From positions 1 through 64,000 of the IMG/VR virus record IMGVR_UViG_3300014911_000001: DNA of 64,000 nucleotides. The stretch is one strand, 5' to 3'. The notes under the pieces were generated by a model. The model saw only the letters and a list, made by a program, of their open reading frames with translations. It had not been told where the DNA came from and searched no databases. Position 1 is the first letter of the stretch. Each line of letters opens with the position of its first letter. Positions 2,553 through 63,626 of this stretch are shown in pieces. This DNA comes from a virus. The position numbers and the translations under genes are program-made.

Positions 2553-3026
2553 ATGAAGTTACAAAGTCTTAGTATCATATTAGCTTTTATTGTTCTATCA
2601 TTTTTCACTAATACATCTGCAAAAACATTAGGTTATGGCTTGATCACAGGATGTGATGTTTACCATACATATGGTGGAACTATCGGGTTCTTCACATATG
2701 GAGGACTAAAGTACTGGGGTATATCACTATCTTATCATCAATCATGGGATGGCGATTACTGTGGTGCTAATATTACTGTGAATAATTCATATCGGTTCGA
2801 GTTCTCAAAACATATTGGTGTAAGCATAGGCAGTTTGACTGGTGTTGGTATTTTATTTACTGACAAGATATTGAGTGAGCATATTGAAAGTTTCGTTGGG
2901 GTATTTTATAAGTGGAAGCGGGGCTTCCTTGAACTTGCATTACATACAATGGTCGATCCTTACCATAAGAAGACGTCGTTTAATAACTGTTATACAATAC
3001 AAATAAAGTATTTTAGGATATTTTAG
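2553..3026 (+). CDS. Signal-peptide protein, probable small outer-membrane beta-barrel
   Basis: Sec signal ending TSA. Alternating Gly/aromatic strands. Ends YTIQIKYFRIF with a terminal Phe. Confidence 0.55.
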   Translation: MKLQSLSIILAFIVLSFFTNTSAKTLGYGLITGCDVYHTYGGTIGFFTYGGLKYWGISLSYHQSWDGDYCGANITVNNSYRFEFSKHIGVSIGSLTGVGILFTDKILSEHIESFVGVFYKWKRGFLELALHTMVDPYHKKTSFNNCYTIQIKYFRIF

Positions 3027-3035
3027 GGGGTTATC

Positions 3036-3275
3036 GTGGCAAAGGATAATAAGAAGAAAGATAACGAGAAAAAACCATTTTGGAAGAGCAAAACCTATTG
3101 GGGTTTGTTTATAGCAGCCATGGGTATGGTACTAAGCAAATATGCAACATCACCATGGCTGTCAATGATTGGGCATTTCTTGGAAACATTTGGTCTTTTG
3201 CTTGCAGGTTATGGTCGTGCTAAGGCTGTAAAACAAATAATTTTTAAGAATAAAAATAATGGAGGTGAGGAATGA
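3036..3275 (+). CDS. Holin-like small membrane protein
   Basis: KPFWKSKTYWG followed by two hydrophobic helices and G...YGR; basic termini. Confidence 0.55.
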   Translation: MAKDNKKKDNEKKPFWKSKTYWGLFIAAMGMVLSKYATSPWLSMIGHFLETFGLLLAGYGRAKAVKQIIFKNKNNGGEE

Positions 3276-3571
3276 ATATCATGGAGGTTTTTGGCAATAT
3301 GGACTCGCCGATATTGGGCGCGCTTCAGCTCGTACTTAGATTCCTTGCTGGTAAGTTCGTTAAACCATGGTACGACGGGCAGCATACCTATGCTAAGTAT
3401 CTTATAACAGATGAAGCGCAGGCCCTTTATGATGGTCTATTGCTTCTTAGAGAAAAAACAACTGATGAGGAGAAGAAGAAGACCATAGAGCAGATAATCG
3501 AGCTTATACGGAGTGTGTTTGAAGCCGCCGAGTTTGGTGTAAACTTCAGAGGTATTGAATTTGGTGGCTAA
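3272..3571 (+). CDS. Hypothetical protein
   Basis: GGAGG RBS; ATGA overlap coupling. Confidence 0.7.
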   Translation: MNIMEVFGNMDSPILGALQLVLRFLAGKFVKPWYDGQHTYAKYLITDEAQALYDGLLLLREKTTDEEKKKTIEQIIELIRSVFEAAEFGVNFRGIEFGG

Positions 3572-4059
3572 TGAGAAAGGTTATTGTAACATTATTTGTG
3601 TTATTTAGTCTGATTGTTGCACAAGATTTTTCCTTCCATTATTCTCCATGGGAGGCCCAGCAGGCTAGAGCTGAATTGGATTACCGATTATGGAGAGGGA
3701 GCATTGTTTATGCTAAATTTGGCATGTGGAACCATTTTGGTGATGAAAAAGGCGCCGGCTTATACTTCGGTCTACCTGTGAAGGTTTCACTATATCAGGA
3801 TATCCTTAAGGCACAGGCTTCAACTAATTACGGTTTTGGATACTTATATCATGGTGATAAGCTTAACAAGTATGCAAACGGACAGGTGAATTTTGTTCTC
3901 CATATTAAGATCGGGAATACCTACTGTCTTACATGTTGCAAGGAGTATTCTAAGGATGTGTACCTTGATATCGGGATAGGTTATACGCTTTTCAGATATA
4001 AGTATGATGATTACAAAGATGTTGTTTCTATATTTTTCGGTGTATCATTTGTAAATTAA
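3571..4059 (+). CDS. Signal-peptide protein, probable outer-membrane beta-barrel
   Basis: MRKVIVTLFVLFSLIVA|Q signal; amphipathic strands YLDIGIGYT and VSIFFGVSF near the C-terminus. Confidence 0.55.
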   Translation: MRKVIVTLFVLFSLIVAQDFSFHYSPWEAQQARAELDYRLWRGSIVYAKFGMWNHFGDEKGAGLYFGLPVKVSLYQDILKAQASTNYGFGYLYHGDKLNKYANGQVNFVLHIKIGNTYCLTCCKEYSKDVYLDIGIGYTLFRYKYDDYKDVVSIFFGVSFVN

Positions 4060-4278
4060 ATGAAAGGAGGTCCAGTGGATTTACGTATTATTATCTTGGT
4101 TATTCTGCTCCTCACCATTCTTTATGTTGCTGGTCCAAAGGGATTTAGTTCACCCTATCATGAGTGGTCATGGTGGGATGCTCAGATTGGTTTAGCTACA
4201 TGGGTGCCCCCACCTGATACCTTGCCAGAATTGGACACCCTTAATATCCGTTTTGAATTCAGGGTGGTTGAAAAATGA
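4060..4278 (+). CDS. Small membrane/exported protein (start possibly GTG at 4075)
   Basis: N-terminal hydrophobic helix; AAAGGAGG precedes GTG at 4075. Confidence 0.6.
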   Translation: MKGGPVDLRIIILVILLLTILYVAGPKGFSSPYHEWSWWDAQIGLATWVPPPDTLPELDTLNIRFEFRVVEK

Positions 4279-4279
4279 C

Positions 4280-4307
4280 TTGACAGTTGGCGCCGGCTTC
4301 ATATTTT
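4280..4307 (+). promoter_or_regulatory. Sigma70-like promoter TTGACA-N16-TATTTT
   Basis: Intergenic, 8 nt before the ATG at 4315; the spacer contains a GGCGCCGGCTTC motif copy. Confidence 0.5.
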
Positions 4308-4314
4308 TTAACAC

Positions 4315-4710
4315 ATGAGAGAAAGAAAAAGGAAAAAGGGGTACTACAAAATTTTTGCTCTCTACAACCCACAAGCAAAGAAGCTCGCCTTTTCCCTCCA
4401 CTGGAGAAAGCATTCAAATGGTACATGGTCACACATATGTGATTCAGTTTATACGGATGTTAGCAAGGCATCAAAAGCAATCCAACTGTTGACAAAATTT
4501 ATTAACAAGAATATTTACAAGAGGTATAAGGTCAAGGTTATCCTTATAAGTGGATTTCCATCATCGATTGTACCTCTTGGTGTTTTATCTGATAGGATTG
4601 TGTTCGTATCATATTATAATGAAAAGCAATATAAGAGGTTATTAAAATTATCGGAGAGTAATTTGGTGGGAAGCCGGCGCCGTAATGAGGTACGTATATT
4701 TAATAAATAA
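4315..4710 (+). CDS. Hypothetical basic protein
   Basis: ORF in a tightly packed operon. Confidence 0.65.
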   Translation: MRERKRKKGYYKIFALYNPQAKKLAFSLHWRKHSNGTWSHICDSVYTDVSKASKAIQLLTKFINKNIYKRYKVKVILISGFPSSIVPLGVLSDRIVFVSYYNEKQYKRLLKLSESNLVGSRRRNEVRIFNK

Positions 4711-4993
4711 GGGGAGGATGAAGCGCGCGCCTCTTGATACTACAAAGCAGAAGCGCGCCTCGAAGAAGCTTGTCGAATCATATGTCAAGCAATATGGCAG
4801 CCTGCCTAAGGCTATTGCCAAGCTCATTAAAGAAGGCTATAATGTCATACCGACAGAGATAGGCTTAGTAAAATTAATGAATGTTATGCATAATAATAAA
4901 TCTCTGTATGTCCCTGTTGTTATGTTCAATGATGTTATTATAAAGGCGGTGGCTTCCCTTCAATTCAATGTCAAAGTGAAAGGAGGATCATGA
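4685..4993 (+). CDS. Hypothetical basic protein
   Basis: ORF coupled to the next gene; alternative start at 4718 after GGGAGG. Confidence 0.65.
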   Translation: MRYVYLINKGRMKRAPLDTTKQKRASKKLVESYVKQYGSLPKAIAKLIKEGYNVIPTEIGLVKLMNVMHNNKSLYVPVVMFNDVIIKAVASLQFNVKVKGGS

Positions 4994-5850
4994 GCAAAGT
5001 GTTATCATATCTTAGAAGCTGCGCGGCTTCCTACATTGAAAACGAACTTGAATATGCCTATAATGCGTGGATTTATGGTGTTAGGCCTGTGCTTTCATGG
5101 CAAGTACTTCCTCTTATTAACATATCAGATGAGGCGGCTTATGGAATCGTATCATTTGATATGGAGCATCCAACAATAACTCACGGGCTTGCCCTCTGGT
5201 CACCATTTTTATTTAACACCTATAAGAATCTGTATAAAATCATGGCTCAGGATGTCGACAGGCGCAACATTCTTTTGTATCCACACCATCTCTTCCTCAC
5301 GAATGAGAAGGATAAGAAACTCCATGATAAGTACACTAAAAAGATCTCACAGGATATGCCAATCATATGGCAGTCGTCATATGTACCGCCATTTATTTAT
5401 TCATACATAGCAGAGACACCTGTGGATCATACAGATTCCATCCCTAGTGGTTTTCTGAAAAAACCATTGGATAACAGGCTACCAATTGTAGCAACAGATT
5501 ATTTAACATCTGAATCAACAAATCCTTTTTCTGCCTATCTTACATCGATACCCACATTTGATGCCTTTTACATGGCATGGACATTCAAGTTATTTCCGGA
5601 TCTTGTTATAAAACAATGTGATTTGACTATATTGCCAGAGTTAAGAAGACAAGTTGTTGCAGTTCTATTATACACCTTATTCCCTGATAGCGAGCTTGAG
5701 CCTCTTATGGAAAAATATGATCTGAAGGAGTTTTCATCGTTTCCCGAATTTATCCGTCCATATTTGGAATTTATAAAGGCATTAAAGGCACAAGAAATAA
5801 TATATGCACAGGAGGAAGGAGGGAGTGATGAATTCATCATTTACGATTAG
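4990..5850 (+). CDS. Hypothetical protein
   Basis: 286-aa ORF with AGGAGG RBS. Confidence 0.75.
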   Translation: MSKVLSYLRSCAASYIENELEYAYNAWIYGVRPVLSWQVLPLINISDEAAYGIVSFDMEHPTITHGLALWSPFLFNTYKNLYKIMAQDVDRRNILLYPHHLFLTNEKDKKLHDKYTKKISQDMPIIWQSSYVPPFIYSYIAETPVDHTDSIPSGFLKKPLDNRLPIVATDYLTSESTNPFSAYLTSIPTFDAFYMAWTFKLFPDLVIKQCDLTILPELRRQVVAVLLYTLFPDSELEPLMEKYDLKEFSSFPEFIRPYLEFIKALKAQEIIYAQEEGGSDEFIIYD

Positions 5851-6532
5851 TAAACTTTACAGAGATTATGGGGTGGGCCTTTTTGCCGATGCATCACTAT
5901 TATTCAACATGAGTAATTGTCAAGCATGTCCTGTCAAGGAGGATCCAATTATCGATCTTAGGGACCCACCTGTGAGGTATTTAGTTATTGGGGATTATCC
6001 GGGTTTAGAGGAGCATCAAGGAAGGCGGCTCTTTATTGGGCCAGCAGGAAGATTCTTGAGAGAACTTTTGACCAAGGAGGGTATTGATGATGACAATGTG
6101 GCATTCCTGAATGCCTTCTTATGTTATGGTGCGCATAATCGTATTAACCATAACAACCCTGTTTACTATTGCCAACCAAGGATTTTGTATTATATTGCCT
6201 ATTATAATCCTGAGGTTATTATATGCATGGGAAGACATGCTTGTGGTGTATTGGAGATACCAAATCAGGATCTTTATGATAAGCCGACCGCTTATCGTTT
6301 GGAGACACCATGGTTTAAGGCCTATTTAGTAGCGACAATTAACCCTGCGTTGTACCTCAGGAATAAGTGGTCGGATGTTTTATATAAGAACATACTAATG
6401 GCTGTGAGATTAGCCAAGTGTCTTGGTGATTATGATTGTCCAACGATTGAGAGTGTTTCGATAGGATTTCCAGATAATGTGCAAGAAACAAGACCAAGGG
6501 GGATCACATGCAATATGAACGAGGGGTATTGA
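5828..6532 (+). CDS. Uracil-DNA glycosylase, family 4-like
   Basis: CQAC, VIGDYPGLEE..GR.FIGPAGRFL, NAFLC, YCQP, PEVIICMGRHA, TINPALYLR. Confidence 0.85.
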   Translation: MNSSFTISKLYRDYGVGLFADASLLFNMSNCQACPVKEDPIIDLRDPPVRYLVIGDYPGLEEHQGRRLFIGPAGRFLRELLTKEGIDDDNVAFLNAFLCYGAHNRINHNNPVYYCQPRILYYIAYYNPEVIICMGRHACGVLEIPNQDLYDKPTAYRLETPWFKAYLVATINPALYLRNKWSDVLYKNILMAVRLAKCLGDYDCPTIESVSIGFPDNVQETRPRGITCNMNEGY

Positions 6533-6909
6533 GCGATAAGTATGTTGATGTTGATTTAAAAAATCTGAAACTTATTCGTATTAATGCACTACCACAGACT
6601 ATACAGTCATTATATCGTATGACAATACAAAATCTACGTAGGGCGCCTATAGTTATTGAAGCCCCCACCTTTGAGTTATTTAATCGTATTGCAGCACAGT
6701 TTGGAGCGCAAGCTGATCGCATAAAAGAAACACGACCATTCGCAAGGTTTCTGTTTGTTGCATATGCTACATATGAAAGGGAAACGTATAAACGTGAGAC
6801 AATCGATGTACCAGTTATCATTTTTTATGATTTGGGTACTGATGTGGCAACATGGTTAGCGCCCCGGTTTTTTATCCCAAAGGTAGATCTAACAAAGGAA
6901 TTAGAATGA
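6508..6909 (+). CDS. Hypothetical protein, weak resemblance to a degenerate DnaC/IstB-type ATPase
   Basis: VPVIIFYDLGTD resembles Walker B LLILDDLG.E; no Walker A. Confidence 0.5.
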   Translation: MQYERGVLSDKYVDVDLKNLKLIRINALPQTIQSLYRMTIQNLRRAPIVIEAPTFELFNRIAAQFGAQADRIKETRPFARFLFVAYATYERETYKRETIDVPVIIFYDLGTDVATWLAPRFFIPKVDLTKELE

Positions 6910-7448
6910 TTGTTGTTAGCAAACAATGCATTGGAACTGATAGAGGTCTTATCTCGCCAAGAAAGTTGGAGCCGGGCCTCATTGTCTATTCATATGCGAA
7001 GAATGTATGGATACCAAATATTTTATTAGATATTGAGGAGGCCGGCTTCATTAACGTATTACAAATTAAAACATCCAACCCTATAATAGGGACAATCCAT
7101 GTGCCTAATATGGTAAGTGTAAGATTACATGGGCGGCTTCTCCTTTTAGACAAAGAACGTTTAAATGATCGGATGCGCATAGGGATTGTTTATGGTTTCC
7201 CTGTCCTTTTTGAAATAGCAAGGACTATAAGAAGTCGTATTGGTAGGTTATATTTGGGATTAGTGAATTTGCATAATAAAAGTATGCATCATAGATTACT
7301 ATTAGATAGAACACGTAAGTATCATAAGGTAGTGCCGAAGTTCGGTACTGTGCGCATAAAGGAATTTAAATGGTGCAAGATGTTAGCATATAATTTAATA
7401 TTGGAATATGACCTTCCTACTGTAGTTAATTTGACATTGCAATTCTGA
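6906..7448 (+). CDS. Free-standing degenerate Hint (intein-like) domain protein
   Basis: IGTDRGLISPRKLEPGLIVYS (block A-like); C-terminal VRIKEF..MLAYNLILE...VVN (blocks F/G-like); no Cys1 and no terminal His-Asn. Confidence 0.55.
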   Translation: MIVVSKQCIGTDRGLISPRKLEPGLIVYSYAKNVWIPNILLDIEEAGFINVLQIKTSNPIIGTIHVPNMVSVRLHGRLLLLDKERLNDRMRIGIVYGFPVLFEIARTIRSRIGRLYLGLVNLHNKSMHHRLLLDRTRKYHKVVPKFGTVRIKEFKWCKMLAYNLILEYDLPTVVNLTLQF

Positions 7449-7459
7449 AGGAGGTTGAG

Positions 7460-9253
7460 ATGCAATTTATACCAGTAGAACAGAGATATGACATAACAGC
7501 TTTGCTTGCCACATATCTCCACAAATATGGTTCTGATTGGTTGAGAAAACTCAGAGAGGATTTGAAAACAACACCATTATCGAAACTTATGGCTAATGTT
7601 GCTACTGATATTGATATAAGCAAGATGGATGAGGAGACTGCCAGCTTATATGATTCGTTATCGAAGATAGGCGGGCGCTTCGGTATAAGGCGCTCGCTTA
7701 ATGCATTCATTACCATGGATATTGATACTTATAAAGCCAAACTAGAGGATAATAGGTATAAGCTACTACAAGAATTTAAATATGAATTCAATGATCCCAC
7801 ATTTTTATTAAATCCACCTGACGATGCTCCTGTTCCTAATGTAACAGAATTTGGTCAGTTTTTGGGTATTATTGATGCTCTTGTATCAAGAGCTATCCCT
7901 TTTGCTATCATAAAGGATGACGCGCTACATGTTACATCATTATTCATAAAAACATTTATTAACATGCGTGACCTTGGATTATTTGAGAATACAACATTTG
8001 AGAACACTCATTTTCTTATTCATAATGAACAGCCGGTTGTATGGCAATCATTTGCTGAGGTAATGCAATATAGCGGTCCTTATTTAAGCAGTTTCGATAC
8101 AGTATTTGTGATGCCTGAATTTCAGGGTTCCTATGATGAGTGGCAGATTATTCTTAGCCTTATTGAGCAAGCTGGTATCCCAATCTTATTTGTTGAAGGT
8201 CGGACGATTGAACCATTCGTAAGCTATTTAACAGGTTATCTGAAGGATCAATCCGATATTGTTATTTTAGACCCTAAGGAGACGAAGAGGCCGTGGGTTA
8301 ATTATCTTATCAATTTCAGAAACAGGGTAAGAAGCGCGCTTCATATAGGTCCAAAGTTGCAACCCACAGAGACAACAAAAGCTTATAAGTCTTATGTTCG
8401 TTCGGCGCTTCCAATTATTAAGCAGATGGAGCATGAAAACATTTCATCTTTTATAAGCAAGCGCTTCTTTGAGCAGGAGAAAATTGTTGATGATATTATT
8501 AAGTGGATTCTCTTGCACAAACATCTTGCAGTAAAGGAACCGTTGAAACGGCCCTTTAGTATGCTATTTGTTGGTACAACAGGTACGGGTAAGAGCTATC
8601 TCGCGCGGCTTCTTATTGAATACTTCGATGTTCCTTCGTATACCATACATGGTAGCCTATTTAGTGAACAACATACGATAAGGATTTTATTAGGCGCGCC
8701 GCCTAGTTATGTAGGTTTCGGTTTGGTACCTGCCTTCGAGAAGTTCTTATCACAATTGGGTGGATCAGACCAATTTCCTGCTGGTATTCTTGTTATTGAT
8801 GAAGCTGAAAAGATGTGCCTTGAGGTTGTAAATCGCATATTGGTGCCTCTTTTAGATGGTGAGGGCATACAGTTTGCTGATGATAAACATATTGTCCCGT
8901 ATAACCTTATGGTAATCGCAACAGCTAATGGTGATGCGGCAGAGCTATCTAAAAGCATAGGGTTTGAGCAACAAGTTCTTGATGATCAAAAAATGGTGAT
9001 GGAGTCCATTGAGAAGTATATGACACCAGAGGTATTGGCCCGCTTCACAGCTGGATATTTTTTCTATCCTCTTTCAGTTGAAGCCCTGTATAAAATTGCT
9101 GTTAGGGAGTTTAAGAGATATGCTAATGATTTGTTTAACGATGAAGTGGCGAAAAAATTACGATCGTTTGCAGAAAGGGCCAAGCATGCAAGAGATGTAG
9201 AGCGGCAGGCCCTCATGTATGCATTCTCATTGATGAAAGGAGGTGATTTATGA
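7460..9253 (+). CDS. ClpA/B-type AAA+ ATPase (D2-like domain) with an unknown N-terminal region
   Basis: FVGTTGTGKS Walker A, LLGAPPSYVGF pore loop, LVIDEAEK Walker B, IATAN, TPEVLARF. Confidence 0.85.
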   Translation: MQFIPVEQRYDITALLATYLHKYGSDWLRKLREDLKTTPLSKLMANVATDIDISKMDEETASLYDSLSKIGGRFGIRRSLNAFITMDIDTYKAKLEDNRYKLLQEFKYEFNDPTFLLNPPDDAPVPNVTEFGQFLGIIDALVSRAIPFAIIKDDALHVTSLFIKTFINMRDLGLFENTTFENTHFLIHNEQPVVWQSFAEVMQYSGPYLSSFDTVFVMPEFQGSYDEWQIILSLIEQAGIPILFVEGRTIEPFVSYLTGYLKDQSDIVILDPKETKRPWVNYLINFRNRVRSALHIGPKLQPTETTKAYKSYVRSALPIIKQMEHENISSFISKRFFEQEKIVDDIIKWILLHKHLAVKEPLKRPFSMLFVGTTGTGKSYLARLLIEYFDVPSYTIHGSLFSEQHTIRILLGAPPSYVGFGLVPAFEKFLSQLGGSDQFPAGILVIDEAEKMCLEVVNRILVPLLDGEGIQFADDKHIVPYNLMVIATANGDAAELSKSIGFEQQVLDDQKMVMESIEKYMTPEVLARFTAGYFFYPLSVEALYKIAVREFKRYANDLFNDEVAKKLRSFAERAKHARDVERQALMYAFSLMKGGDL

Positions 9254-9657
9254 ATTCAATAACAATCGTTGGTACCATTGCTAGCAAGATAATGCATACA
9301 AATGGTCAATATGGTTGTTACCTGAAGGATGATGATAACCTGTTTTACATCTGGATGAGTGAGGGTATTATAAAGAGGGTGAAGGCCGGGTCTATATTGA
9401 ACAAGGGCACCGAGGTTTTTATTATAGGGCGTGTAATACATACATTTAATAAGAATGGCAAGACGATCATTGCTGTCGGCGCCTATAAGCTACAACCCCT
9501 TGCATCAGTTGCTCTTAAGAACAGCATTGTATCTCCCAGTAAACCAAAAAAGAAGAAGGAAGAGAAAAAAATTGTTGAAGATGAGGATGGAAATGATATA
9601 ATACCTGTTAATGTCAGGGATATATTAAATGGTCAATTTGAAGGAGAGGAAGCCTGA
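9250..9657 (+). CDS. ssb: Single-stranded DNA-binding protein (OB fold)
   Basis: MNSITIVGTI, LNKGTEVFIIGRV, charged tail. Confidence 0.7.
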   Translation: MNSITIVGTIASKIMHTNGQYGCYLKDDDNLFYIWMSEGIIKRVKAGSILNKGTEVFIIGRVIHTFNKNGKTIIAVGAYKLQPLASVALKNSIVSPSKPKKKKEEKKIVEDEDGNDIIPVNVRDILNGQFEGEEA

Positions 9658-9959
9658 TGGAAGTTGGGAAGATTTTATCTGCCTTTGTTAACAGAACAAG
9701 TGATGAGAAATACCAATTTCTGAAGAATGAGTTTGGTACATTACTAAAGTCGAATAAGGAACAAATTCCACAGGATGTATTGGATCTTTTATTCGCTGTA
9801 ACATATTATATACGTATTAACCCTACCCTTCTGCGAGGGCTTTCATATGTAGAATCATTAGTCAAGGCCGGCTTCAAGAATCCACGTCTCGATGAGCTAA
9901 AGGATTCTATTGCAGAGGCACATAAAATTGCCCGTGAGATATTCATTTCAACAGACTAA
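9657..9959 (+). CDS. Hypothetical protein
   Basis: TGATG coupling. Confidence 0.7.
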   Translation: MEVGKILSAFVNRTSDEKYQFLKNEFGTLLKSNKEQIPQDVLDLLFAVTYYIRINPTLLRGLSYVESLVKAGFKNPRLDELKDSIAEAHKIAREIFISTD

Positions 9960-9972
9960 ATAAGGAGAGAAG

Positions 9973-54018: not shown

Positions 54019-54070
54019 GCTTATAATATCACTCATCCTTTTGTTTTGTTGCCTTATAATTGACAATAAC

Positions 54071-55553: not shown

Positions 55554-55564
55554 TATTTACCTCC

Positions 55565-55813
55565 TTAATTTAAAGAATATGCTACCTTCTTGCAAGAACC
55601 GCCCTTATACATTATACAAGGCTTAGATTTCCCATATTCATCAGTCCTCCATACAACAACATACATATCCGGCGCCGCCTTCCTACAAATTTTGCGGGCT
55701 TCTCTCCTCGCCCGCTTAAACTTCCTGTACTCACCTACTATCGTAATCCCGCCGGCTTCACATAAAATAACAGTATATCTGTCCACACGAAATTCTTCAT
55801 TCCCTGTCCGCAT
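55565..55813 (-). CDS. Hypothetical protein
   Basis: RBS. Confidence 0.6.
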   Translation of the reverse strand: MRTGNEEFRVDRYTVILCEAGGITIVGEYRKFKRARREARKICRKAAPDMYVVVWRTDEYGKSKPCIMYKGGSCKKVAYSLN

Positions 55814-56248: not shown

Positions 56249-56297
56249 TCAGGATACCTCCTTATCCACATCAAACAAATCCTAAAGGGCGCGGGCT

Positions 56298-56795
56298 TCA
56301 CAACAAATACTCCCGCTTAATCCTCCCTATCTCTGCATTAATCTCTTCTATCCGCCGCCTCACTCTCCTTAACCTATCCCAGTCCTCACCCGATACCAAA
56401 AAATCATCCAAAACAACCGCCTCACTCCAAGGAGTAGACGAAGCCTCACGCGGTAACGCACGAACCTCCACAGGCTCATTAGATAAACGCCACCTCTCCT
56501 CAGCTAACCTCCTCACCTTCTCCCTCATCTGCTCCCTCACATATAAAAACCCCTTTGCAATGTTTATAATATGCCTCAATCTGAATAAATCAACCTCACT
56601 CCGCACCTCCAACGGTATCTCCTCAACAAGAGACCCAGCTACCTTCCCGCCATGTTCACGACGCACCCTATCCACCAAACTCATTATAACATCCGACGTC
56701 ACATTAGCAAACGATAACGACTCAAATTCCTTCTCCACATCACGCGATATCGAAGCTATACGCCTCGCATTGATCAACGACTTAAATAATGCCAT
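56298..56795 (-). CDS. Hypothetical protein
   Basis: AGGAGGTG RBS; G-rich codons. Confidence 0.7.
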   Translation of the reverse strand: MALFKSLINARRIASISRDVEKEFESLSFANVTSDVIMSLVDRVRREHGGKVAGSLVEEIPLEVRSEVDLFRLRHIINIAKGFLYVREQMREKVRRLAEERWRLSNEPVEVRALPREASSTPWSEAVVLDDFLVSGEDWDRLRRVRRRIEEINAEIGRIKREYLL

Positions 56796-56822
56796 ACTTA
56801 CACCTCCTTGTATGTTTTCCTC

Positions 56823-57206
56823 TCACATAACATCTTCCCTATCAATAACATCTAAGGCATACCGCGCGGCTTCCTCTATATCACCAAACTCCTTATACCT
56901 AACATTCCACTTCGACGGCTTCCTCCCATATCCACCAACCTCTCTCCCCGTCCCCGCATCTACCACAATAATCTCACCAGGAATAAAAACATCCCTCATA
57001 ATACGATGAATATGCCACCTCCTTCCCTCATGCTCAATATCAAACTCATGAAGCTGCGAAAACAACACCTTCTCACCAGCACAAGAATCAACAAACATAT
57101 ACCCATCATCCGTCAACGATATACACGTATCCGCACAACAACGCTCACCATGCTCAGATGTAGGATCCGAAATTACACCCTCAATAACAATAAACTTCAA
57201 ATCCAT
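56823..57206 (-). CDS. Hypothetical protein
   Basis: Start MDLKF after AGGAGGT; GRKPSKW motif. Confidence 0.7.
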   Translation of the reverse strand: MDLKFIVIEGVISDPTSEHGERCCADTCISLTDDGYMFVDSCAGEKVLFSQLHEFDIEHEGRRWHIHRIMRDVFIPGEIIVVDAGTGREVGGYGRKPSKWNVRYKEFGDIEEAARYALDVIDREDVM

Positions 57207-57339
57207 GTTATTACCTCCTGTTAATGTTGTTAATACCCCCGTTACATCCAATGCATAACCTCTATGTCAATCCATTACCCAACCATAACCAAGCCAAACC
57301 ATGCAGGCCAGCACTGAGTCTACGAAGTCCACCAAGGTC

Positions 57340-57468
57340 CACCAACCCTCCACAAACCCTCTACAAACTACTCTACTTCTACAAATGGTTCTACAAAGTC
57401 TACAAGCGGTCCTACAAACGGTCCTATACATGGCCCTACACATGGTCCTACAACGGTCCTACAAACTG
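57340..57468. repeat. Degenerate 12-bp tandem repeat (CTACAAACGGTC-like, about 9 copies); candidate origin or terminus
   Basis: ctacaagcggtc ctacaaacggtc ctatacatggcc ctacacatggtc; located at a strand-composition switch. Confidence 0.7.
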
Positions 57469-57585
57469 AAGAGGCCTATGGCGCCTGCTGGCTTCGTCGG
57501 GCCTCGCTCGACCTCTGATGGGTTTCGTTGGGTGTCCTGACCTCGCTGGCTGGTTTTCGGCGGAAATTTGGCGTTGTTTGGGCAT
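57448..57585 (-). CDS. Small basic ORF (45 aa, MPKQRQIS...)
   Basis: AAAGGAGGT RBS and an upstream GTCAAT motif. Confidence 0.4.
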   Translation of the reverse strand: MPKQRQISAENQPARSGHPTKPIRGRARPDEASRRHRPLQFVGPL

Positions 57586-57632
57586 TTTGACCTCCTTTGT
57601 TTGATATTTGTTTTTATGCCAGTAGATTGACT

Positions 57633-58619
57633 TTATTTTAGTATGCGCTCTATGGCTCTTCTGAAGTTTTTTAGTGTTTGTTCTTTTGAGTGTTTGATTA
57701 TTTTTTTGGCTTCGTTCATGGTTATAGGGCGGGCTTCGATATTATTGTTTACGGCGTAGTGGTATGGTACGAACAGGGTTTTATTGGTTTTTATTATTTT
57801 GAGGTATAAACCGCGGCATCCTATGTCGAAGTCCTTTTTCATATCCCTATCTACGATCATAGCCTCGCTGAGGTAGGTATCTGGTATTGTTTCGAGGGTT
57901 AGTGGGTTGGTGAAGCCGCGGCTCCTCCTTACGAAGTAGTACTTGCAGTGGATGCAGTGAAGCCCGCACTTTTTTACTTTAGTGTTAAGTTCCATGTCAT
58001 CTGAGATCCACCTACCCTTCTCCTCGAATGTATCATATTTATAGCAATATACGGTGTTTGTTCCTATATCATATATGGTTTGTATATGATTATCTTCGGG
58101 CAGTAAGATGCACATCGCGACCTCGCGTTGGTGGTGTATTTTTATATCCTTATTACCGAGCAACAATCTTGTAATCTTGTTTTCATATTGTTCATATATT
58201 TTATCTATATCAGCGCAGATATATATTTCATCGCCTTTTGATAGGAGCTTTTTTATTGCTTCGGTGCAGAGTGTTATTGAGTTGCCTATCTTGATGGCTT
58301 TTAGTGGTATTTCGAGGTGTTTGCAGATGCTACATGTAGGCATGCTGGAGTGTTCACTTGGTTCTGCGTATGATATTTTATAGAAGAGGAATGGGAATGC
58401 TTGGAGTGAAGCCGGCGCCCATGGTGGGGAAGAAGCCGCGGCCTCCTTATGTTCTCTTGATACTATATAGGCTGAAGCCGCGCCGCCTAATGTATCAACG
58501 ATAAAATTAAGATGAAACACCATCTGCTCCACAGAATATTCTCCTTTGACATCAGGATCCGATTCCACTACATAAACCTTACCATCCTTCATTCCATAGA
58601 TAGCATATATCATCCCCAT
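57633..58619 (-). CDS. Hypothetical protein, paralog family A with a C-terminal extension
   Basis: GG...YIVSR, PPWAP...AFPFLFYKI, CSIC. Confidence 0.7.
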   Translation of the reverse strand: MGMIYAIYGMKDGKVYVVESDPDVKGEYSVEQMVFHLNFIVDTLGGAASAYIVSREHKEAAASSPPWAPASLQAFPFLFYKISYAEPSEHSSMPTCSICKHLEIPLKAIKIGNSITLCTEAIKKLLSKGDEIYICADIDKIYEQYENKITRLLLGNKDIKIHHQREVAMCILLPEDNHIQTIYDIGTNTVYCYKYDTFEEKGRWISDDMELNTKVKKCGLHCIHCKYYFVRRSRGFTNPLTLETIPDTYLSEAMIVDRDMKKDFDIGCRGLYLKIIKTNKTLFVPYHYAVNNNIEARPITMNEAKKIIKHSKEQTLKNFRRAIERILK

Positions 58620-59152
58620 CTACTCCTCCCTTCTCGTATAAACTCCCTCAGTCTTATGGGTTTATCATGTAGTATAAGAACGCTCGCGTTGTTGCGTGCT
58701 ATGATATCGACCCAGAACTCATCTGGTGTGACATATGTATTGCTTATTACGATGATGCCTTTGATTTGAGCTACCTTCATCCATAGAGGAATATGTTGCT
58801 GGACATACAGACATGGTACATCCTGTGGTGCTATTATGCTACAAATACGGTAGAAGGAGAAGGGGAAGCCGGCGACCTCTGCTGGTAGCCATGGTGGTTC
58901 ATCAGGTTCGTTGTTGGTTGGAGGTGGTTGGTCCATGTGTGATGGTAGAGGTATTTCATTGCGAGAGAAGATGTATGAAGCCCCGCCCTCTTTATATATA
59001 TCATATAAATTACTAATAACATCACTTTTATTAAATATATAATTCCACACGAGCAGATTATCTTGGTTCGTGAATGTTGGTTCTAAATACAACTTAGGAG
59101 GGATACCTATTTTGATTGGACTGAGTATGACATAGTAGTAATCGTCTGTCAT
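58610..59152 (-). CDS. Hypothetical protein, paralog family A
   Basis: Start MTDDYYYVILS after AAAGGAGG; GGASYIFSR, PPWLP...GFPFSFYRI. Confidence 0.7.
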   Translation of the reverse strand: MTDDYYYVILSPIKIGIPPKLYLEPTFTNQDNLLVWNYIFNKSDVISNLYDIYKEGGASYIFSRNEIPLPSHMDQPPPTNNEPDEPPWLPAEVAGFPFSFYRICSIIAPQDVPCLYVQQHIPLWMKVAQIKGIIVISNTYVTPDEFWVDIIARNNASVLILHDKPIRLREFIREGRSRWG

Positions 59153-59260
59153 GAAGCCCGCGCCTCCTTTTTTTATCACCTCTCTTTTTCTTCGCCGCCC
59201 CTCCCTTGCCCCACCGCCCCGCCTCATTGCCCTGCCTACGGTTATGACATATTTTACCAT

Positions 59261-59288
59261 ATTATAATGAAAATTTTATTATTTTCAA
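59261..59288 (-). promoter_or_regulatory. Sigma70-like promoter TTGAAA-N16-TATAAT
   Basis: Intergenic, minus strand. Confidence 0.6.
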
Positions 59289-59371
59289 GATCTTTCCCTT
59301 CCTTTTTTCCTCATTGCGATGCCGACAGTTATGGTTTAGTTACCGCAAAATTGACCAAAAAAATTTACGGT

Positions 59372-61348
59372 CTACTTATTAGGCCGCCAGCCTGACGCTG
59401 TCTTGAATGCGTAGAACAAGCTCTTCGCCTCCTCTTTACTTATACCGTTCTTTATCGCGATCTGCTCGATGACCAGATCCTCATTAGCAGGAAGAGGAAC
59501 GATATCAATCTCGGATGGATCCTTATCGTCTCTGAATCTGATGAAGCGCGGCGCCCTGAGAGCTTCTTTTCCTAGATCCATCGCGCGGACTTCGATGACT
59601 CTTCCTTTATATTTCTCAGGATGGAGCCACATGTCATCTCTTATTTCGTCTGTGAAGCCGGAACCGACCATCGCGACTACTTTACCCGTAGCATCAGCTG
59701 CTGCTACCTTCCCTGCGGAGTTGGATAACCTTCCTGTACCGGGCAGAATATCAACGATCTTCAAATCATAGGTATCAAATCTTTTTACCTTATACCACTT
59801 ATCCTCTCTTGGCAATCCGTTGGGATCCTTTATAATGATACCTTCGCCCAGTGGCAGATCGTCATCGATCATGTCGCGGAAGAAGTCGGCGGCCTTATCA
59901 GGATCACTGGACTTGAAGTGTATCATCTTTGGCACCGTGAACATCCTCTTGGTCGCGGCTTCAGGTATTTGGTATTTACCATAATAACTCTCATTAAGAA
60001 GCCCGACGATATCCTCGTATATGGTTCTTCTTTCCATGTATGAAGCCGGCGCTGGTATCAGTACTCCGTCCTCTGTGGCCCATCCGATCCAGTCGAATAC
60101 CATTAGTCGGATTAAGCCGCGCTCCTTCTGTGCAAGGACGGCATTCTCGGGACTCGCGTTGAGCATCCCGCTGAGGACATTAGCTCCATCAGGATGCCAC
60201 AGCTCGCCCCGCAGGACCATCCCCACCGCCCGCTCCGGTAGCCATAAGCCCGCGCTCATATGAGGAACATTACCCTCTCTGTGGATCGGATATCCCTCAA
60301 CGGAATACCTTCTACTTACTACAGTAAGAGTAACAGGCACTCCATCAGGCAGATAACCCTCATATTTGAGGAAGGCGCGCTTCAGTGCGTTAATCGCGGC
60401 TCTATCTAAGACTGGTTTGACTATAGCTGGCTGACTCACCTTGAACGACGGACCGGGGTCCTGGCTTTTCTTGGCAGCGGTGAAGACCTTGAGGACCCCA
60501 CCGATGGTCCCCACCGCCCGCCCCGCTTCTTCCCGCGGGCTTACTATGATTTGATCCTCTGTCTTAAGAATCTCATATTCTCCTGTCTCGAAGAACGGTG
60601 CGTTTATTCTTATTATGAAGTTGGCACCATCGACCTTCCGCTCTGCGATAAGCTCCTTACCTTCCTCGACTCTCTTGGTGACATCCTCCGCTGTTTCGAG
60701 GGCTTCATACACTCGCCTCGGGAACCATAATTCCGTAAATCCAGAATGACGGATCGCGATATAATTTTTATCTGTCACCTTAATGAACTCCCACCATCCG
60801 GACCACGGCTCATCTATTTTATACGGTGTGAATACCTCAACAGATTTCAGGTTGGATCTTACTACGCCCGGACTTTGGTATTCGATGGTCATTAAGCCGG
60901 CGCCGTATTGCCCTTCGGGGATTTCACCTTCGAAGTCCTCTGCTAGGATTTTATGATCCTGGGATCTTATCACATTTGTTTTCCATCCGCTTGGTTTCTT
61001 AGGATTATCGTCAGCATGAAGCGGCGGCTTCTTCTTGAACACGAACGATATCAGTCTTTCGCTAGCACTTTTGAGGAGGCGCTGGCTCCGTGTCACAGGA
61101 TATCTGAACCGGAAGTCCCAGTGAAGCCCCGCCGCCCGCGCCTCATGCCTATGCACCGTCACCCTAGTAGGATATGGTTTCAGAGGTCTTAGCTCCATGT
61201 TCTTCTTATAGAGCGCCCGCTTCGTGGATCCCTTAATAACACGCTTTGCGGCTATCTGTGTATACGCTTTAATGAGACCGTTAGTAACAGCCTTATGCAG
61301 GAGAGCACCGGTTATCTTCGTACCAAGGGTTGCTGCTATGTGCCACAT
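59372..61348 (-). CDS. ATP-dependent DNA ligase with an N-terminal LigD-type 3'-phosphoesterase domain
   Basis: HEARAAGLHWDFRF and FEGEIPEGQYGAG (PE domain); ERKVDG, RGEL, VFD, EGIIIK, KVK, VGSGFTD, RAPRFIRFRDDK. Confidence 0.9.
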   Translation of the reverse strand: MWHIAATLGTKITGALLHKAVTNGLIKAYTQIAAKRVIKGSTKRALYKKNMELRPLKPYPTRVTVHRHEARAAGLHWDFRFRYPVTRSQRLLKSASERLISFVFKKKPPLHADDNPKKPSGWKTNVIRSQDHKILAEDFEGEIPEGQYGAGLMTIEYQSPGVVRSNLKSVEVFTPYKIDEPWSGWWEFIKVTDKNYIAIRHSGFTELWFPRRVYEALETAEDVTKRVEEGKELIAERKVDGANFIIRINAPFFETGEYEILKTEDQIIVSPREEAGRAVGTIGGVLKVFTAAKKSQDPGPSFKVSQPAIVKPVLDRAAINALKRAFLKYEGYLPDGVPVTLTVVSRRYSVEGYPIHREGNVPHMSAGLWLPERAVGMVLRGELWHPDGANVLSGMLNASPENAVLAQKERGLIRLMVFDWIGWATEDGVLIPAPASYMERRTIYEDIVGLLNESYYGKYQIPEAATKRMFTVPKMIHFKSSDPDKAADFFRDMIDDDLPLGEGIIIKDPNGLPREDKWYKVKRFDTYDLKIVDILPGTGRLSNSAGKVAAADATGKVVAMVGSGFTDEIRDDMWLHPEKYKGRVIEVRAMDLGKEALRAPRFIRFRDDKDPSEIDIVPLPANEDLVIEQIAIKNGISKEEAKSLFYAFKTASGWRPNK

Positions 61349-61358
61349 TTGCACCTCC

Positions 61359-61643
61359 TTATATAACCTTTTTCACATTGAATTTTTCTACGAGGGCATC
61401 AGCCATCTTCGCAGCACATTTTATACAGTATGGCCCGAAGGTTTTCTCCTTCTGGAACGCTCGGTAATCATCCTCATTATTACTGGTTTTTCTTATATTA
61501 CCAGCAATGATGAGGAATGCGAGGTCCTTCGGACCATAATTTTTACCACATATTTTACATGTCCACTTTTTACTTTTTCTGAATAGCATATCTCTACTCC
61601 TTTTGATGTTGTTTACTCTTGAGTTCTTCGTGAAATTCAGCAA
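61359..61643 (-). CDS. Small Zn-finger protein (start likely MLFRKS)
   Basis: CKICG...YCIKC. Confidence 0.65.
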   Translation of the reverse strand: MLNFTKNSRVNNIKRSRDMLFRKSKKWTCKICGKNYGPKDLAFLIIAGNIRKTSNNEDDYRAFQKEKTFGPYCIKCAAKMADALVEKFNVKKVI

Positions 61644-61803
61644 CAGCTTCTTCTACCTTAGTGGAAGGCGTGATAAACAGAGTAATACCATTGAACTCTA
61701 GATCGATATACACACCAAGCCGCTTTGAGGTTTCAATAGCCTCTTCAACGGCATTCACTATGTGTGTACCGGGTAATGGTTTCATGGTGACTACCAATTT
61801 CAT
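61594..61803 (-). CDS. Conserved small phage protein
   Basis: GT.I..A..EAI...LEFNG; RBS. Confidence 0.7.
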   Translation of the reverse strand: MKLVVTMKPLPGTHIVNAVEEAIETSKRLGVYIDLEFNGITLFITPSTKVEEAVAEFHEELKSKQHQKE

Positions 61804-61865
61804 CCTGTCCTCCTTGTTGATGTGAGGCCCCGCTCCTGCCCCACCCCGCCGCCCCCATCAACTTA

Positions 61866-62303
61866 TTAAGCTTCTTGGGCGGCCTTCTTCATCGCATAAA
61901 ATTCCTTGAGCTCTTTTGCGCTCAAGCCCAGCTTGACAGCACCAGTCATAATAACAGGCACCGATACCACAGGTGGCGCCATCGTTGCGATGATAGCACC
62001 AGTTATAGCTCTTCCTACATTCAGCATGGATTTCAGCGTGTAATGTTTTATGTCTTTACACTCCTCAGGTCTTATATCCTTGGTTAACGCCGTACTTCCG
62101 AGGACGACCTTGGCAACGGGCCCAACGATCGGCAGCAATGTCAGGCCAGCGCCAATAGCCATGGTTGGCTTATCGGCCTCTATGATCGCGTTTCTTGCCG
62201 TTTGATACTTCTCTCTTATGAAGCCGCGGCTTCTTTCTGCTATATCCTTTATCTTTTCGCGCGGCTTCACCTTCTTTACTTTCATAGCGAGTTTCTTTAC
62301 CAC
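61866..62303 (-). CDS. Membrane-associated hypothetical protein
   Basis: Gly/Ala-rich hydrophobic hairpins; RBS. Confidence 0.65.
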   Translation of the reverse strand: MVKKLAMKVKKVKPREKIKDIAERSRGFIREKYQTARNAIIEADKPTMAIGAGLTLLPIVGPVAKVVLGSTALTKDIRPEECKDIKHYTLKSMLNVGRAITGAIIATMAPPVVSVPVIMTGAVKLGLSAKELKEFYAMKKAAQEA

Positions 62304-62304
62304 A

Positions 62305-62649
62305 TTACACCTCCTTGCTTCTGATTTTTATTAGCTCCTCCTCTATTTTTATATCAGGATCCATCACAAAGAAGATGAGGCGCGCATACCTGTTAACAGG
62401 ATAATCAGGATAACCACCGATTGTTTCCCATGTGTGCAGACATATTATATATGTATCGCTTTTATACACGACCTCAAGCTCATCATATGTGCAACAGTCT
62501 CTTAGCATGTTACCAGAATTAGCTATCCATCTCTGTCCTACTTCTGCTTTTTCTAGGTCACTCCATGTAATCGTGATCTCGTCGCCCTCTCCATTATAGT
62601 CGAGGGCCGCGAGTCTGAATGCAATGTTCTGCTGCACTGTTTCTACCAT
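62305..62649 (-). CDS. Hypothetical protein
   Basis: RBS and an upstream GTCAAT motif. Confidence 0.7.
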   Translation of the reverse strand: MVETVQQNIAFRLAALDYNGEGDEITITWSDLEKAEVGQRWIANSGNMLRDCCTYDELEVVYKSDTYIICLHTWETIGGYPDYPVNRYARLIFFVMDPDIKIEEELIKIRSKEV

Positions 62650-62702
62650 CCTAATACCTCCTTGTTTGTTTTAGTTACCACTAAATTGACACCCGCCGGG
62701 CT

Positions 62703-62894
62703 TCACTCCTCCTCATATTCCTCCTTGTAATATTTTTCCTGATGCGGTAATAACTCCACTAGTGTCCCGCAGTATACGCATTCATATGGAGGATTGTCAA
62801 CCCTGGCGTTCTTTCCTGTCCACATTCCACACACAGGACATATCACATTGCCTGTAACGCTTACATCACCAATAACGGTGACTTTTTCACACAT
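62703..62894 (-). CDS. Small Zn-ribbon protein
   Basis: CPVCG...CVYCG. Confidence 0.65.
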   Translation of the reverse strand: MCEKVTVIGDVSVTGNVICPVCGMWTGKNARVDNPPYECVYCGTLVELLPHQEKYYKEEYEEE

Positions 62895-63074
62895 GTTTAC
62901 CTCCTTCCTGCTTTTTTTCCTTACTATTAAACATTATCCTGCGGGCTTCCGCCCCCACCGCCCGCCCCTCAAAGGCGGCGGCTTCTTATATCCTCCGCCG
63001 ATATGATACACAATATAAACGAGGCTAATAGTGGTAACACAGCTAGTAGCATCTTAATTATCCTCCTTTGTGTA

Positions 63075-63109
63075 AGATTTGCGTCAGATGTGTCAGATTT
63101 GCGTCAGAT
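63075..63109. repeat. Direct repeat AGATTTGCGTCAGAT x2 (20-bp period)
   Basis: Copies at 63075-89 and 63095-109, intergenic. Confidence 0.6.
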
Positions 63110-63375
63110 TAGCTCTTCTTCTTACTGAGTAATGCGCTCATTTGGATGTATACACTTATAAGAACACTTGCCAGCAATCCTACTATCATGCCGGTTACCC
63201 CGACGAACAGGGTAACCCCAACAGCCACCAGAATGCAGCTGATCGCAAAATCGCGCAGGTAGTGATTGCCTCGCAATCCTCTGATCAGCCCTTTCTCCTT
63301 TATTCTCTTCATGCCACGGGTCAGACTTATATACATCCATACTAAGCCCGCGGCCGCCACTAGGTATAGCAACAT
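63109..63375 (-). CDS. Small membrane protein
   Basis: Three hydrophobic segments; RBS. Confidence 0.7.
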   Translation of the reverse strand: MLLYLVAAAGLVWMYISLTRGMKRIKEKGLIRGLRGNHYLRDFAISCILVAVGVTLFVGVTGMIVGLLASVLISVYIQMSALLSKKKS

Positions 63376-63425
63376 AATACACCTCCTTGTTTATTCGCCA
63401 TTTGATTGACTAGGCGGTTATGACA

Positions 63426-63626
63426 TCATGGCCGCCAATGCTTCGGTGGCTTCCGGCGGCCCTTCTTCTTCCTCTTTTTGTTTTCAAACGCCTGTCCCGG
63501 CTTGATTGGTCCTATCACTTCTCTTGATAGGTATTTGATCACCTTTGATATTTCGCTGCCGGGCTTCTTCTTCCTTTTGCGGCGCTTCTTGCCCACTCCT
63601 ACTCCTCCTTGGATATGTTTATGCAT
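63426..63626 (-). CDS. Small very basic protein
   Basis: K/R-rich; AGGAGGAG RBS before GTG GGC AAG. Confidence 0.5.
   Translation of the reverse strand: MHKHIQGGVGVGKKRRKRKKKPGSEISKVIKYLSREVIGPIKPGQAFENKKRKKKGRRKPPKHWRP

Follow-up and report, generated by a model that had tools for sequence, protein, structure and literature searches.

Why should the G/C-only runs of a phage genome so often carry AAG on their left or CTT on their right, within genes as well as between them, and what could read such a word? The question arises from the first 64 kb of the complete genome of an uncultured phage (175.8 kb, 40% GC); this stretch of 64,000 nucleotides is referred to as the window in the following. 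Across the phage genome, about 430 copies of an oriented word, AAG plus at least six further G/C letters, are distributed over both strands and lie within genes as well as in spacers. Within the window, 81 (G/T)AAG+S5 and 93 S5+CTT(A/C) half-sites (S being G or C) amount to 174, i.e. 2.7 per kb. The density of 2-3 per kb and total above 100 estimated in a previous sequence-only reading are thereby reproduced, while its chance expectation of 1-2 was set too low, as second-order Markov simulations of the window yield 17.2 ± 5.2 half-sites (maximum 31). With a chance level of about 17 per window, the excess is therefore about 10-fold. Similarly, 188 GC-only runs of at least 7 are present compared to 68 ± 8.5 in the simulations, and 133 of these (71%) are flanked by AAG or CTT, including 34 double-headed AAG-S-CTT runs. 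Hence, the flanks that were thought to accompany almost every GC run are found on about 70% of runs of at least 7, not on nearly all.

Genome-wide, the over-representation persists against codon-preserving controls (z = 17-42 over synonymous shuffles). Here, runs of at least 7 number 490 compared to 219 in synonymous-codon shuffles (z 22), AAG+S5 191 compared to 60 (z 20), S5+CTT 300 compared to 49 (z 42) and double-headed runs 84 compared to 6.8 (z 36). As had been suspected, the motif occurs in three frames and in genes of both strands. The excess arises mostly via correlated synonymous codon choice, with amino-acid order contributing only about 1.25- to 1.9-fold; the idea that the motif forces certain peptides into unrelated proteins thus finds little room, the effect being chiefly synonymous in the codon-shuffle comparison. 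In Vibrio phage KVP40, used as control (50 kb, 43% GC), such GC runs are depleted, not enriched.

Anatomy and distribution of the word

The unit is an oriented word of 9-12 nt, 5'-(G/T)AAG(CC) followed by a G/C-only tail, in which the uninterrupted G/C run counted from the G of AAG is at least 7. With a strict half-site defined as AAG+S6 or S6+CTT on the + strand, the window holds the following set:

1141..63587, no single strand: 164 strict half-sites (82 AAG+S6 and 82 S6+CTT on the + strand), consensus 5'-(G/T)AAG-C-C-S(3-6)

The AAG head is highly specific, as S5 or more follows 7.9% of all AAG, 3.6% of GAG and at most 2% of other tested heads. GAGG/CCTC variants, originally counted as members of the element, have to be removed from it, since GAG/CTC is neither enriched alone nor conserved. 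Behind AAG, the tail starts with C (78%) and C (70%), thereafter being about 50/50 G/C. Enrichment sets in at a run length of 6-7 and climbs with length, and the GC-run excess resides wholly in AAG/CTT-headed runs, headless runs being observed 120 times compared to 140 expected. A tail that is read merely as G or C, and with a sharp length threshold, suggests that the strength of base pairing along about 7-9 bp matters, and not recognition letter by letter.

The ten full palindromic copies quoted earlier were all recovered in a sequence check at their positions (no strand assigned), and the window count likewise returned the three half-sites described for a short segment near 58 kb:

2914..2928: double-headed copy GGAAGCGGGGCTTCC
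8331..8342: double-headed copy GAAGCGCGCTTC, with a GC run of only 6
12614..12627: double-headed copy GAAGCCGCGGCTTC
24183..24195: double-headed copy GAAGCCCGGCTTC
27094..27109: double-headed copy GAAGCCGCGCGGCTTC
35401..35414: double-headed copy GAAGCCGCGGCTTC
53879..53892: double-headed copy GAAGCCGCGGCTTC
55111..55124: double-headed copy GGAAGCCGGCTTCC
61018..61031: double-headed copy GAAGCGGCGGCTTC
62220..62233: double-headed copy GAAGCCGCGGCTTC
58408..58488, + strand: three GAAGCC+S half-sites in 81 nt

Nevertheless, the palindrome is not the unit it was taken for: double-headed runs are 17.5-fold enriched, which is about the product of the single heads (2.4 x 7.0), and a permutation test gave no excess of perfect self-complementarity (26 of about 90 double-headed runs; GAAG-headed copies left out). 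Long-range stems were rejected as well, nearby reverse-complement partners of GC runs being no commoner than direct repeats: within 100 nt, 24 of the former compare with 23 of the latter. Neither Rfam families nor tRNAs were found in the window.

Word density is 2.41 per kb in coding and 2.76 per kb in intergenic DNA, with about one site per 0.8 kb per strand. Gaps are exponential (CV 1.00), so that spacing is of Poisson type and a regular lattice is not supported; short-range periodicity or helical phasing of the gaps was not detected. Inside genes, no preference for place is seen, the profile being flat apart from a gap at the start codon, which is to be expected. The window is balanced in orientation, with 82 sites each way. 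Along the entire genome, the orientation skew remains level from 0 to 70 kb, drops between 70 and 85 kb and climbs from 95 to 176 kb, a course that is confounded by strand asymmetry in the late genes, where it is strong and of the C>T (deamination) type; the skew may simply track this asymmetry. The divergent intergenic region near 93 kb, an origin candidate, contains no iterons.

Conservation at synonymous sites

Two relatives of about 92-96% identity were used for comparison, scoring G/C loss at four-fold degenerate sites. In both, the loss from headed runs is 3-6 times slower than that from headless runs or from background. Relative to the 95% relative, the loss is 2.3% in headed runs, 10.1% in headless runs and 13.5% in background (Fisher p = 1.3e-5), and relative to the 92% relative the corresponding values are 9.2%, 26.9% and 28.5% (p = 0.0017). 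The slower loss is seen in both orientations of the word relative to the gene and has its threshold at run length 7, the same as for enrichment, while the conserved footprint at third codon positions covers positions 0-8 of AAGCCSSSS. Since headed runs lose G/C more slowly in either gene orientation and with the same threshold of 7, the word is maintained by purifying selection on the DNA itself. The assumption of the sequence-only reading that selection acts on the DNA, for which synonymous-site conservation in related viruses was the proposed check, is therefore borne out. Because headless GC runs provide an internal neutral control in the same genome, this is a clean case of selection.

With respect to the 95% relative, 305 sites are common and 20 and 23 are private. 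The main effect in the pairwise four-fold estimate is an S>W rate lowered 3-7-fold; W>S is roughly unchanged against the 95% relative. When changes were polarised three-way, S>W amounted to 6/246 in the motif vs 212/1780 elsewhere, and W>S to 4/30 at near-miss positions vs 239/4948 elsewhere. Two mutational candidates were rejected. Sheltering of G/C runs by duplex stability fails on headless runs, which change at the background rate, and nearest-neighbour mutation bias, with C>T varying about 2-6-fold by ±1 context (a partly circular estimate), cannot yield a 7-nt threshold.

Candidate readers of the word

Four genes of the window are relevant to the question of what reads the word:

15069..17414, - strand: Toprim primase of the DnaG type, fused with a DnaB-like helicase and bearing a Cys/His motif like that of a zinc finger at its N-terminus
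5804..6532, + strand: UDG-superfamily glycosylase, a candidate actor only for motif-directed repair
17485..18441, + strand: Cas4/PD-(D/E)XK-like exonuclease, a candidate actor only for a Chi-like signal
11497-13005, - strand: SF2 helicase, a candidate partner of the Cas4-like exonuclease, again only for a Chi-like signal

The first of these is the sole primase of the phage, a Prim-Pol being absent from the genome, and we infer it to be a candidate reader of the word. Further replication genes encode PolB, RNase H, an RNase HII-like protein and a ligase; a RecA homologue is encoded as well.

Judging from sequence features, we tentatively propose, as our best guess, that the words could be preferred start sites of this zinc-finger primase-helicase. 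The template strand would present 5'-S(6 or more)-C-T-T-3', the zinc finger would recognise the CTT trinucleotide, kin to CTA/CTG of bacterial DnaG, and the primer would begin with pppA(A)G and run on into the G/C tail. The result would be a primer-template hybrid of 9-10 nt made of strong pairs only, within an otherwise AT-rich genome, and by retaining one site per about 0.8 kb per strand, selection would allow lagging-strand synthesis to restart wherever the fork runs. The Poisson spacing at this distance on each strand and the single zinc-finger primase in the same genome, together with the further replication genes, speak for priming; a primer may start at the CTT/AAG head, which is specific and conserved. 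An orientation skew without two clean replication arms speaks against it, as does the absence of the motif from three phages whose primase-helicases are the nearest homologues (26-28% identity). Moreover, the pairwise estimate shows chiefly a reduced S>W rate, W>S hardly differing in one of the two comparisons, a pattern that motif-specific repair would produce as well. We know of no primase that needs, or selects genome-wide for, a G/C tail of 7-10 nt. Primases of bacteria and phages begin at defined trinucleotides, which are CTA/TTA in Bacilli, CTG in E. coli and CCC in Aquifex, with Okazaki fragments of 1-2 kb (PMC2978363), and the G/C-only trinucleotides of Aquifex have been interpreted as an adaptation for stability (PMC2532735).

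Rather improbable, by comparison with priming, is a Chi-like or 'self' signal, in which a helicase-nuclease would read the oriented word on single-stranded DNA and shift from degradation to RecA loading. The enzyme would be host RecBCD/AddAB or the Cas4-like nuclease of the phage together with the SF2 helicase, leaving phage DNA protected and marked as self. An oriented, over-represented and selected word inside genes fits such a role, and exonuclease, helicase and RecA homologue are all encoded by the phage; likewise, the orientation skew reverses near 85-95 kb, and low-GC bacteria have short Chi sites rich in G/C. However, Chi sites are fixed sequences, whereas the word has four to seven G-or-C positions and a length threshold, and orientation bias is missing over 0-70 kb.

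Motif-directed repair, for which very-short-patch repair at CCWGG in E. coli offers a comparison, we consider unlikely. In this case, a phage or host enzyme would restore C:G from T:G or U:G in the context of the word, which would build up unused. The reduced four-fold S>W rate at nearly constant W>S in the closer relative would be accounted for, and a UDG-superfamily glycosylase as well as the deamination-type asymmetry of the late genes are at hand. Yet it is difficult to conceive of an enzyme that would require this head and accept any G/C tail of 7 or more, headless runs are unprotected, and the polarised data hint at W>S being raised at near-misses, which is not expected from deamination repair.

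That the words are bound by a phage protein of DNA organisation, packaging or transcription, which would recognise GAAGCC beside stiff G/C DNA, appears quite unlikely. A conserved footprint of 9-10 bp and sites located genome-wide on both strands would suit such a protein, but not the Poisson spacing without helical phasing, and G-vs-C degenerate positions are unusual in direct base read-out. No candidate protein was found, most neighbouring genes being without family.

The chances are slimmer still that the word is a target of chemical modification or programmed single-strand nicks introduced by a host enzyme or an unrecognised phage enzyme. Nick and modification sites, which the sequence-only reading had brought up, are likewise short and oriented. 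Against this, a search of the complete genome for C5, N4/N6 and D12 DNA methyltransferases (PF00145, PF01555, PF02086) returned none, and recognition sites of enzymes are not built as a degenerate tail with a length threshold. Programmed nicks of T5-type phages are few and all on one strand, in contrast to about 430 two-strand sites of the phage word, with equal strands in the window.

The word is not accounted for by codon bias, inserted mobile elements, sheltering through duplex stability or a signal in mRNA. A signal in RNA or transcription (hairpins in mRNA, pausing or termination) is largely refuted and highly improbable: although S-run+CTT on the sense strand is enriched about 6x vs about 3x for AAG+S-run in most gene blocks, and double-headed copies could form small hairpins, conservation holds in both orientations to the gene, raw counts in the window are equal, coding and intergenic densities are alike, complementary partners are not in excess, positional preference inside genes is missing and palindromy carries no premium. 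In-frame mobile GC clusters (with precedents in the AT-rich genomes of organelles and Rickettsia), a side effect of composition or codon bias, and duplex-stability sheltering are refuted by zero indels at runs among three genomes (changes are point transitions with positions kept), by run lengths without a multiple-of-3 rule, by the persistence of the excess after synonymous and codon-order shuffles and by headless GC runs that are neither enriched nor conserved.

Comparison with known systems

No known system explains the word. The comparison with HIP1 and Chi drawn at the outset is a fair analogy of kind, although the defining features of both are missing. HIP1 (GCGATCGC, cyanobacteria) is, like the word, hyper-abundant, located in coding sequence in all frames, above codon-preserving controls and conserved among relatives, and what it does is still under debate (PMC5861425, PMC4390886). 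HIP1, however, is a fixed palindromic octamer with orphan methyltransferases and quasi-periodic occurrence, whereas the word, borne by a phage instead of a cell, is built as an oriented half-site whose tail accepts G or C, with Poisson spacing, and no methyltransferase was found in the phage. Chi sites and uptake sequences (USS/DUS) are also oriented, over-represented in genes and act on DNA rather than protein. They are fixed sequences of cellular genomes, read base by base, while in the phage word only the AAG(CC) head is fixed and the tail is about 50/50 G/C. Mitochondrial GC clusters and Rickettsia palindromic elements resemble the word as G/C-rich islands in AT-rich coding DNA, but are mobile insertions, in contrast to phage runs without indels or length rule and with ordinary codons.

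Primase sites (5'-GTC for T7 gp4, 5'-CTA/CTG for bacterial DnaG, 5'-CCC for Aquifex) are oriented short template words that a zinc-finger primase reads. Occurrence on both strands and spacing of about a kilobase are shared; a preference for stable primers is known (PMC2978363, PMC2532735), and a primase of this type is encoded by the phage. Known primase sites comprise 3-5 nt, however, and a G/C tail of 7-10 nt is unprecedented. Enrichment or genome-wide conservation of known primase sites has, to our knowledge, not been described.

From its sequence, the word could conceivably be a genome-wide 'strength-coded' replication signal kept by selection, in which a fixed head of three to five letters and a strong-pair tail with a length threshold are read by the phage replisome, most simply as start sites of its primase; we put this forward with reserve. 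If true, priming sites, or any replisome signal built in this way, would for the first time be visible as written into a genome by selection. Such a signal would shape synonymous codon choice across the whole genome, and a large part of the unusual codon usage in the lineage would be explained by the word. If the priming reading is right, start-site needs of a replisome can constrain coding sequence genome-wide, a constraint of which we know no documented case. Chi, uptake sequences and HIP1 each exposed a machine that reads the genome directly; the phage word appears differently built, as an oriented head with a tail set by base-pair strength alone. The single primase-helicase gene in the window offers a concrete target for assays.

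In an IMG/VR scan with GAAGCCGCGGCTTC, the phenomenon was confined to contigs belonging to the same species cluster, no other phage lineage showing it. A close cultured phage relative was not found, and the ribonucleotide reductase of the phage has no close relative in the searched genome contigs. Its PolB has 99%-identical relatives, followed by the next at 24%.

Abundance and build of the word

A window-wide series of GAAGC-[GC]n-GCTTC palindromes and half-sites had been described in the sequence-only reading, and all of the copies quoted there were found where it had placed them. GC-only runs of 7-11 nucleotides are 2- to 12-fold more frequent than predicted by a composition model and runs of 4-5 are depleted, and in the window 174 half-sites of the form (G/T)AAG+S5 (S being G or C) were counted as compared to 17.2 ± 5.2 in second-order Markov simulations. 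Against shuffles preserving each protein together with its codon usage, the excess persists genome-wide with z = 17-42, and the motif is present in all three reading frames, both in agreement with that reading. Strict sites in the window amount to exactly 82 per orientation, and motif density is 2.76 per kb in intergenic versus 2.41 per kb in genic DNA. In a comparison stretch of 50 kb from Vibrio phage KVP40, which has a similar GC content, such runs are depleted, and when IMG/VR was scanned with the most frequent full copy, all contigs showing the phenomenon belonged to the phage's own species cluster. No earlier account of a phage word built in this way was found.

The excess of GC-only runs is confined entirely to those starting with AAG or ending with CTT (headed runs), and headless runs number 120 versus 140 expected; together with the survival of the excess in synonymous shuffles, this count rules out codon or composition bias. 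AAG is the strongly favoured head, with 7.9% of all AAG being followed by at least five further G/C, compared to 3.6% for GAG and at most 2% for the remaining heads tested. After AAG, the next two letters are mostly C (78% and 70%), followed by G or C in nearly even proportions. Double-headed runs (AAG-S-CTT), which had been taken for palindromes, are 17.5-fold enriched, which is what multiplying the enrichments of the two single heads (2.4 x 7.0) gives. Hence, an oriented half-site, 5'-(G/T)AAG(CC)S..., constitutes the unit, and the palindrome has to be given up as such, as it represents two half-sites back to back. In a permutation test on a 26-run subset of the double-headed runs, no excess of perfect self-complementarity was detected. 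Enrichment sets in once runs reach 6-7 nucleotides and rises with length, and four-fold degenerate sites carry G/C with a probability of 0.30 in ordinary surroundings versus 0.56-0.9 where a run of at least 7 is completed. Spacing between sites is exponential (CV 1.00) without phasing, so that the previously suggested regular binding lattice was discarded, and no excess of complementary partners was observed near the runs.

Conservation in related contigs

Two related contigs were fetched whole, one of 147 kb at ~95-96% identity and one of 55 kb at ~92%. Runs keep their position across these relatives and changes are transitions, never indels, which, along with the run-length distribution, disposes of in-frame mobile GC clusters. 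Conservation was assessed as loss of G/C at four-fold sites, using the headless GC runs of the same genome as control.

Loss of G/C at four-fold sites in the two relatives
Closer relative (~95%): headed runs 2.3%, headless runs 10.1%, background 13.5% (Fisher p 1.3e-5)
Farther relative (~92%): headed runs 9.2%, headless runs 26.9%, background 28.5% (Fisher p 0.0017)

At synonymous sites, headed runs thus lose G/C more slowly than headless runs and background, and runs headed by GAG/CTC behave like headless ones. As headless runs lose G/C near the background rate, a generic sheltering of G/C runs through duplex stability was rejected. Judged by third codon positions, the conserved stretch spans ~9 letters (AAGCCSSSS) with both flanks at background divergence, while the conservation threshold is a run length of 7, matching that of enrichment. 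Conservation holds for both orientations of the site relative to the gene, bearing out the earlier claim that selection acts on the DNA. The motif is a real, strong and lineage-specific DNA-level signal under purifying selection.

The phage and its closer relative have 305 sites in common, and 20 and 23 are private. Within three-way aligned regions, S>W changes (W being A or T) were found in 6/246 cases in the motif versus 212/1780 elsewhere, and W>S changes in 4/30 cases where the motif would be completed versus 239/4948. Small as these numbers are, both shifts would be expected under mutation-selection balance at a scaled coefficient of about 2.5.

The farther contig (G002) has fewer copies, with 32 sites private to the full phage record (G000) versus 11 private to G002, and a lower GC content (38.1%). 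Hence, the word is being lost in one lineage or gained in the other.

Priming and other candidate functions

A tail in which four to seven positions take G or C with equal ease and never A/T, and which is effective only beyond a threshold length, resembles a pairing-strength requirement and not base-by-base read-out by a protein. This tail is attached to a fixed, oriented head of three to five letters, and approximately one site per 0.8 kb per strand is present on both strands, regardless of genes. By analogy with known primases, primer synthesis is the best-fitting process, and the words are tentatively put forward as candidate start sites of the phage primase, a reading that is possible rather than probable. 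Bacterial and phage primases initiate at defined trinucleotides via a zinc-binding domain (CTA/TTA, CTG, or CCC in Aquifex), and Okazaki fragments measure 1-2 kb (PMC2978363). That the trinucleotides of Aquifex consist of G/C only was interpreted as stability adaptation (PMC2532735). In the phage, the predicted template is 5'-S(6 or more)CTT-3', on which a primer of pppA(A)G, then G/C, would be made. The sole primase of the phage, encoded within the window, is of DnaG/Toprim type, fused to a DnaB-like helicase, and carries an N-terminal Cys/His zinc-finger-like motif. Three points count against priming. To our knowledge, no primase requires a tail of such length, and the motif is absent from three phages whose primase-helicases are the nearest homologues (26-28% identity). 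Furthermore, the orientation pattern does not match two clean replication arms.

Along the genome, the raw orientation difference is flat at 0-70 kb, falls at 70-85 kb and rises steadily at 95-176 kb, and in the late region the sites are biased towards the plus strand. Late genes (G000 93000-175796) display strong sense-strand G>C (+0.26 to +0.31) and T>A skews at four-fold sites, whereas those in blocks of 0-93 kb are weak and inconsistent (-0.18 to +0.06); hence, the late region has a mutational or expression regime of its own. Since the AAGCC form requires sense-strand cytosines, the orientation skew may be a by-product of late-gene asymmetry and not a mark of replication direction.

As an alternative to priming, a Chi-like or self signal read by a helicase-nuclease is rather unlikely. 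Chi and uptake sequences belong to cellular genomes and are fixed words, whereas the phage word is fixed in its head only. The nearest parallel is HIP1 of cyanobacteria, which, as the phage word, is hyper-abundant in coding sequence and over-represented compared to codon-preserving controls, and which is conserved and still unexplained (PMC5861425, PMC4390886). HIP1, however, is a fixed palindrome, methyltransferase-linked and quasi-periodic, while the phage word displayed none of these three properties when tested. It belongs to the known class of selected over-represented genomic words, with a different build. In pairwise estimates, the decrease in S>W is clear and a rise in W>S appears in one comparison only, so that motif-directed mismatch repair comes into consideration as a possible, though improbable, process. 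A binding protein recognising the word, with which the appearance of the tail agrees poorly, is quite improbable. The same applies even more to a modification or nick target, and a HIP1-like methylation mark made by the phage itself was ruled out for the three methyltransferase families searched, none of which gave a match in the complete genome. An RNA or transcription signal is barely credible, and a sense-RNA signal was dismissed in view of the conservation of sense and antisense sites alike, equal counts, similar intergenic density and no nearby-partner excess.

Gene content and ends of the phage genome

The virus record comprises 175,796 bp with 40.2% GC in a single contig rated complete, the window being its first 64 kb. 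No close cultured relative of the phage was found, and relatives of its polymerase are 99% identical only, the next best falling to 24% identity. Replication and nucleotide genes include a family-B DNA polymerase, an SF2 helicase, a Cas4-like exonuclease and a UDG-superfamily glycosylase. Outside the window, RNase H, an RNase HII-like protein, RecA, ribonucleotide reductase, ThyX, dUTPase and PhoH are encoded, as well as TnpB and a terminase with a Hint domain.

Individual features of the phage genome (L133 and L134 are further pieces of G000)
Window 5804-6532 and 30174-30830: UDG-superfamily glycosylase and weak nucleoside 2-deoxyribosyltransferase-like protein
Window 55000-64000 and on to ~75000 of G000: G/C-rich island, 44-49% GC
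Window 59372-61354, minus strand: DNA ligase (OB domain), 660 aa, N-terminal LigD 3'-phosphoesterase-like part
G000 74808-76052 (L133:10808-12052), minus strand: TnpB / IS605 OrfB (Cas12f-like) gene, 414 aa
G000 100351-102897 (L134:16351-18897): large terminase gene with Hint/intein-like domain

Glycosylase and deoxyribosyltransferase-like protein, together with dUTPase and ThyX, hint at a tight control of uracil and base content in the phage DNA. The fusion of ligase and LigD-phosphoesterase-like part is unusual and could trim ribonucleotide ends. The TnpB gene is placed within the stretch of peak motif density. In the G/C-rich island, four-fold GC is 0.49 versus 0.31 elsewhere, and headless GC runs are plentiful. 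Contig G002 continues from G000 position 175738 directly into position 347, and G000 has no terminal repeat; hence, the phage map is probably circularly permuted and the ends of the record are arbitrary.
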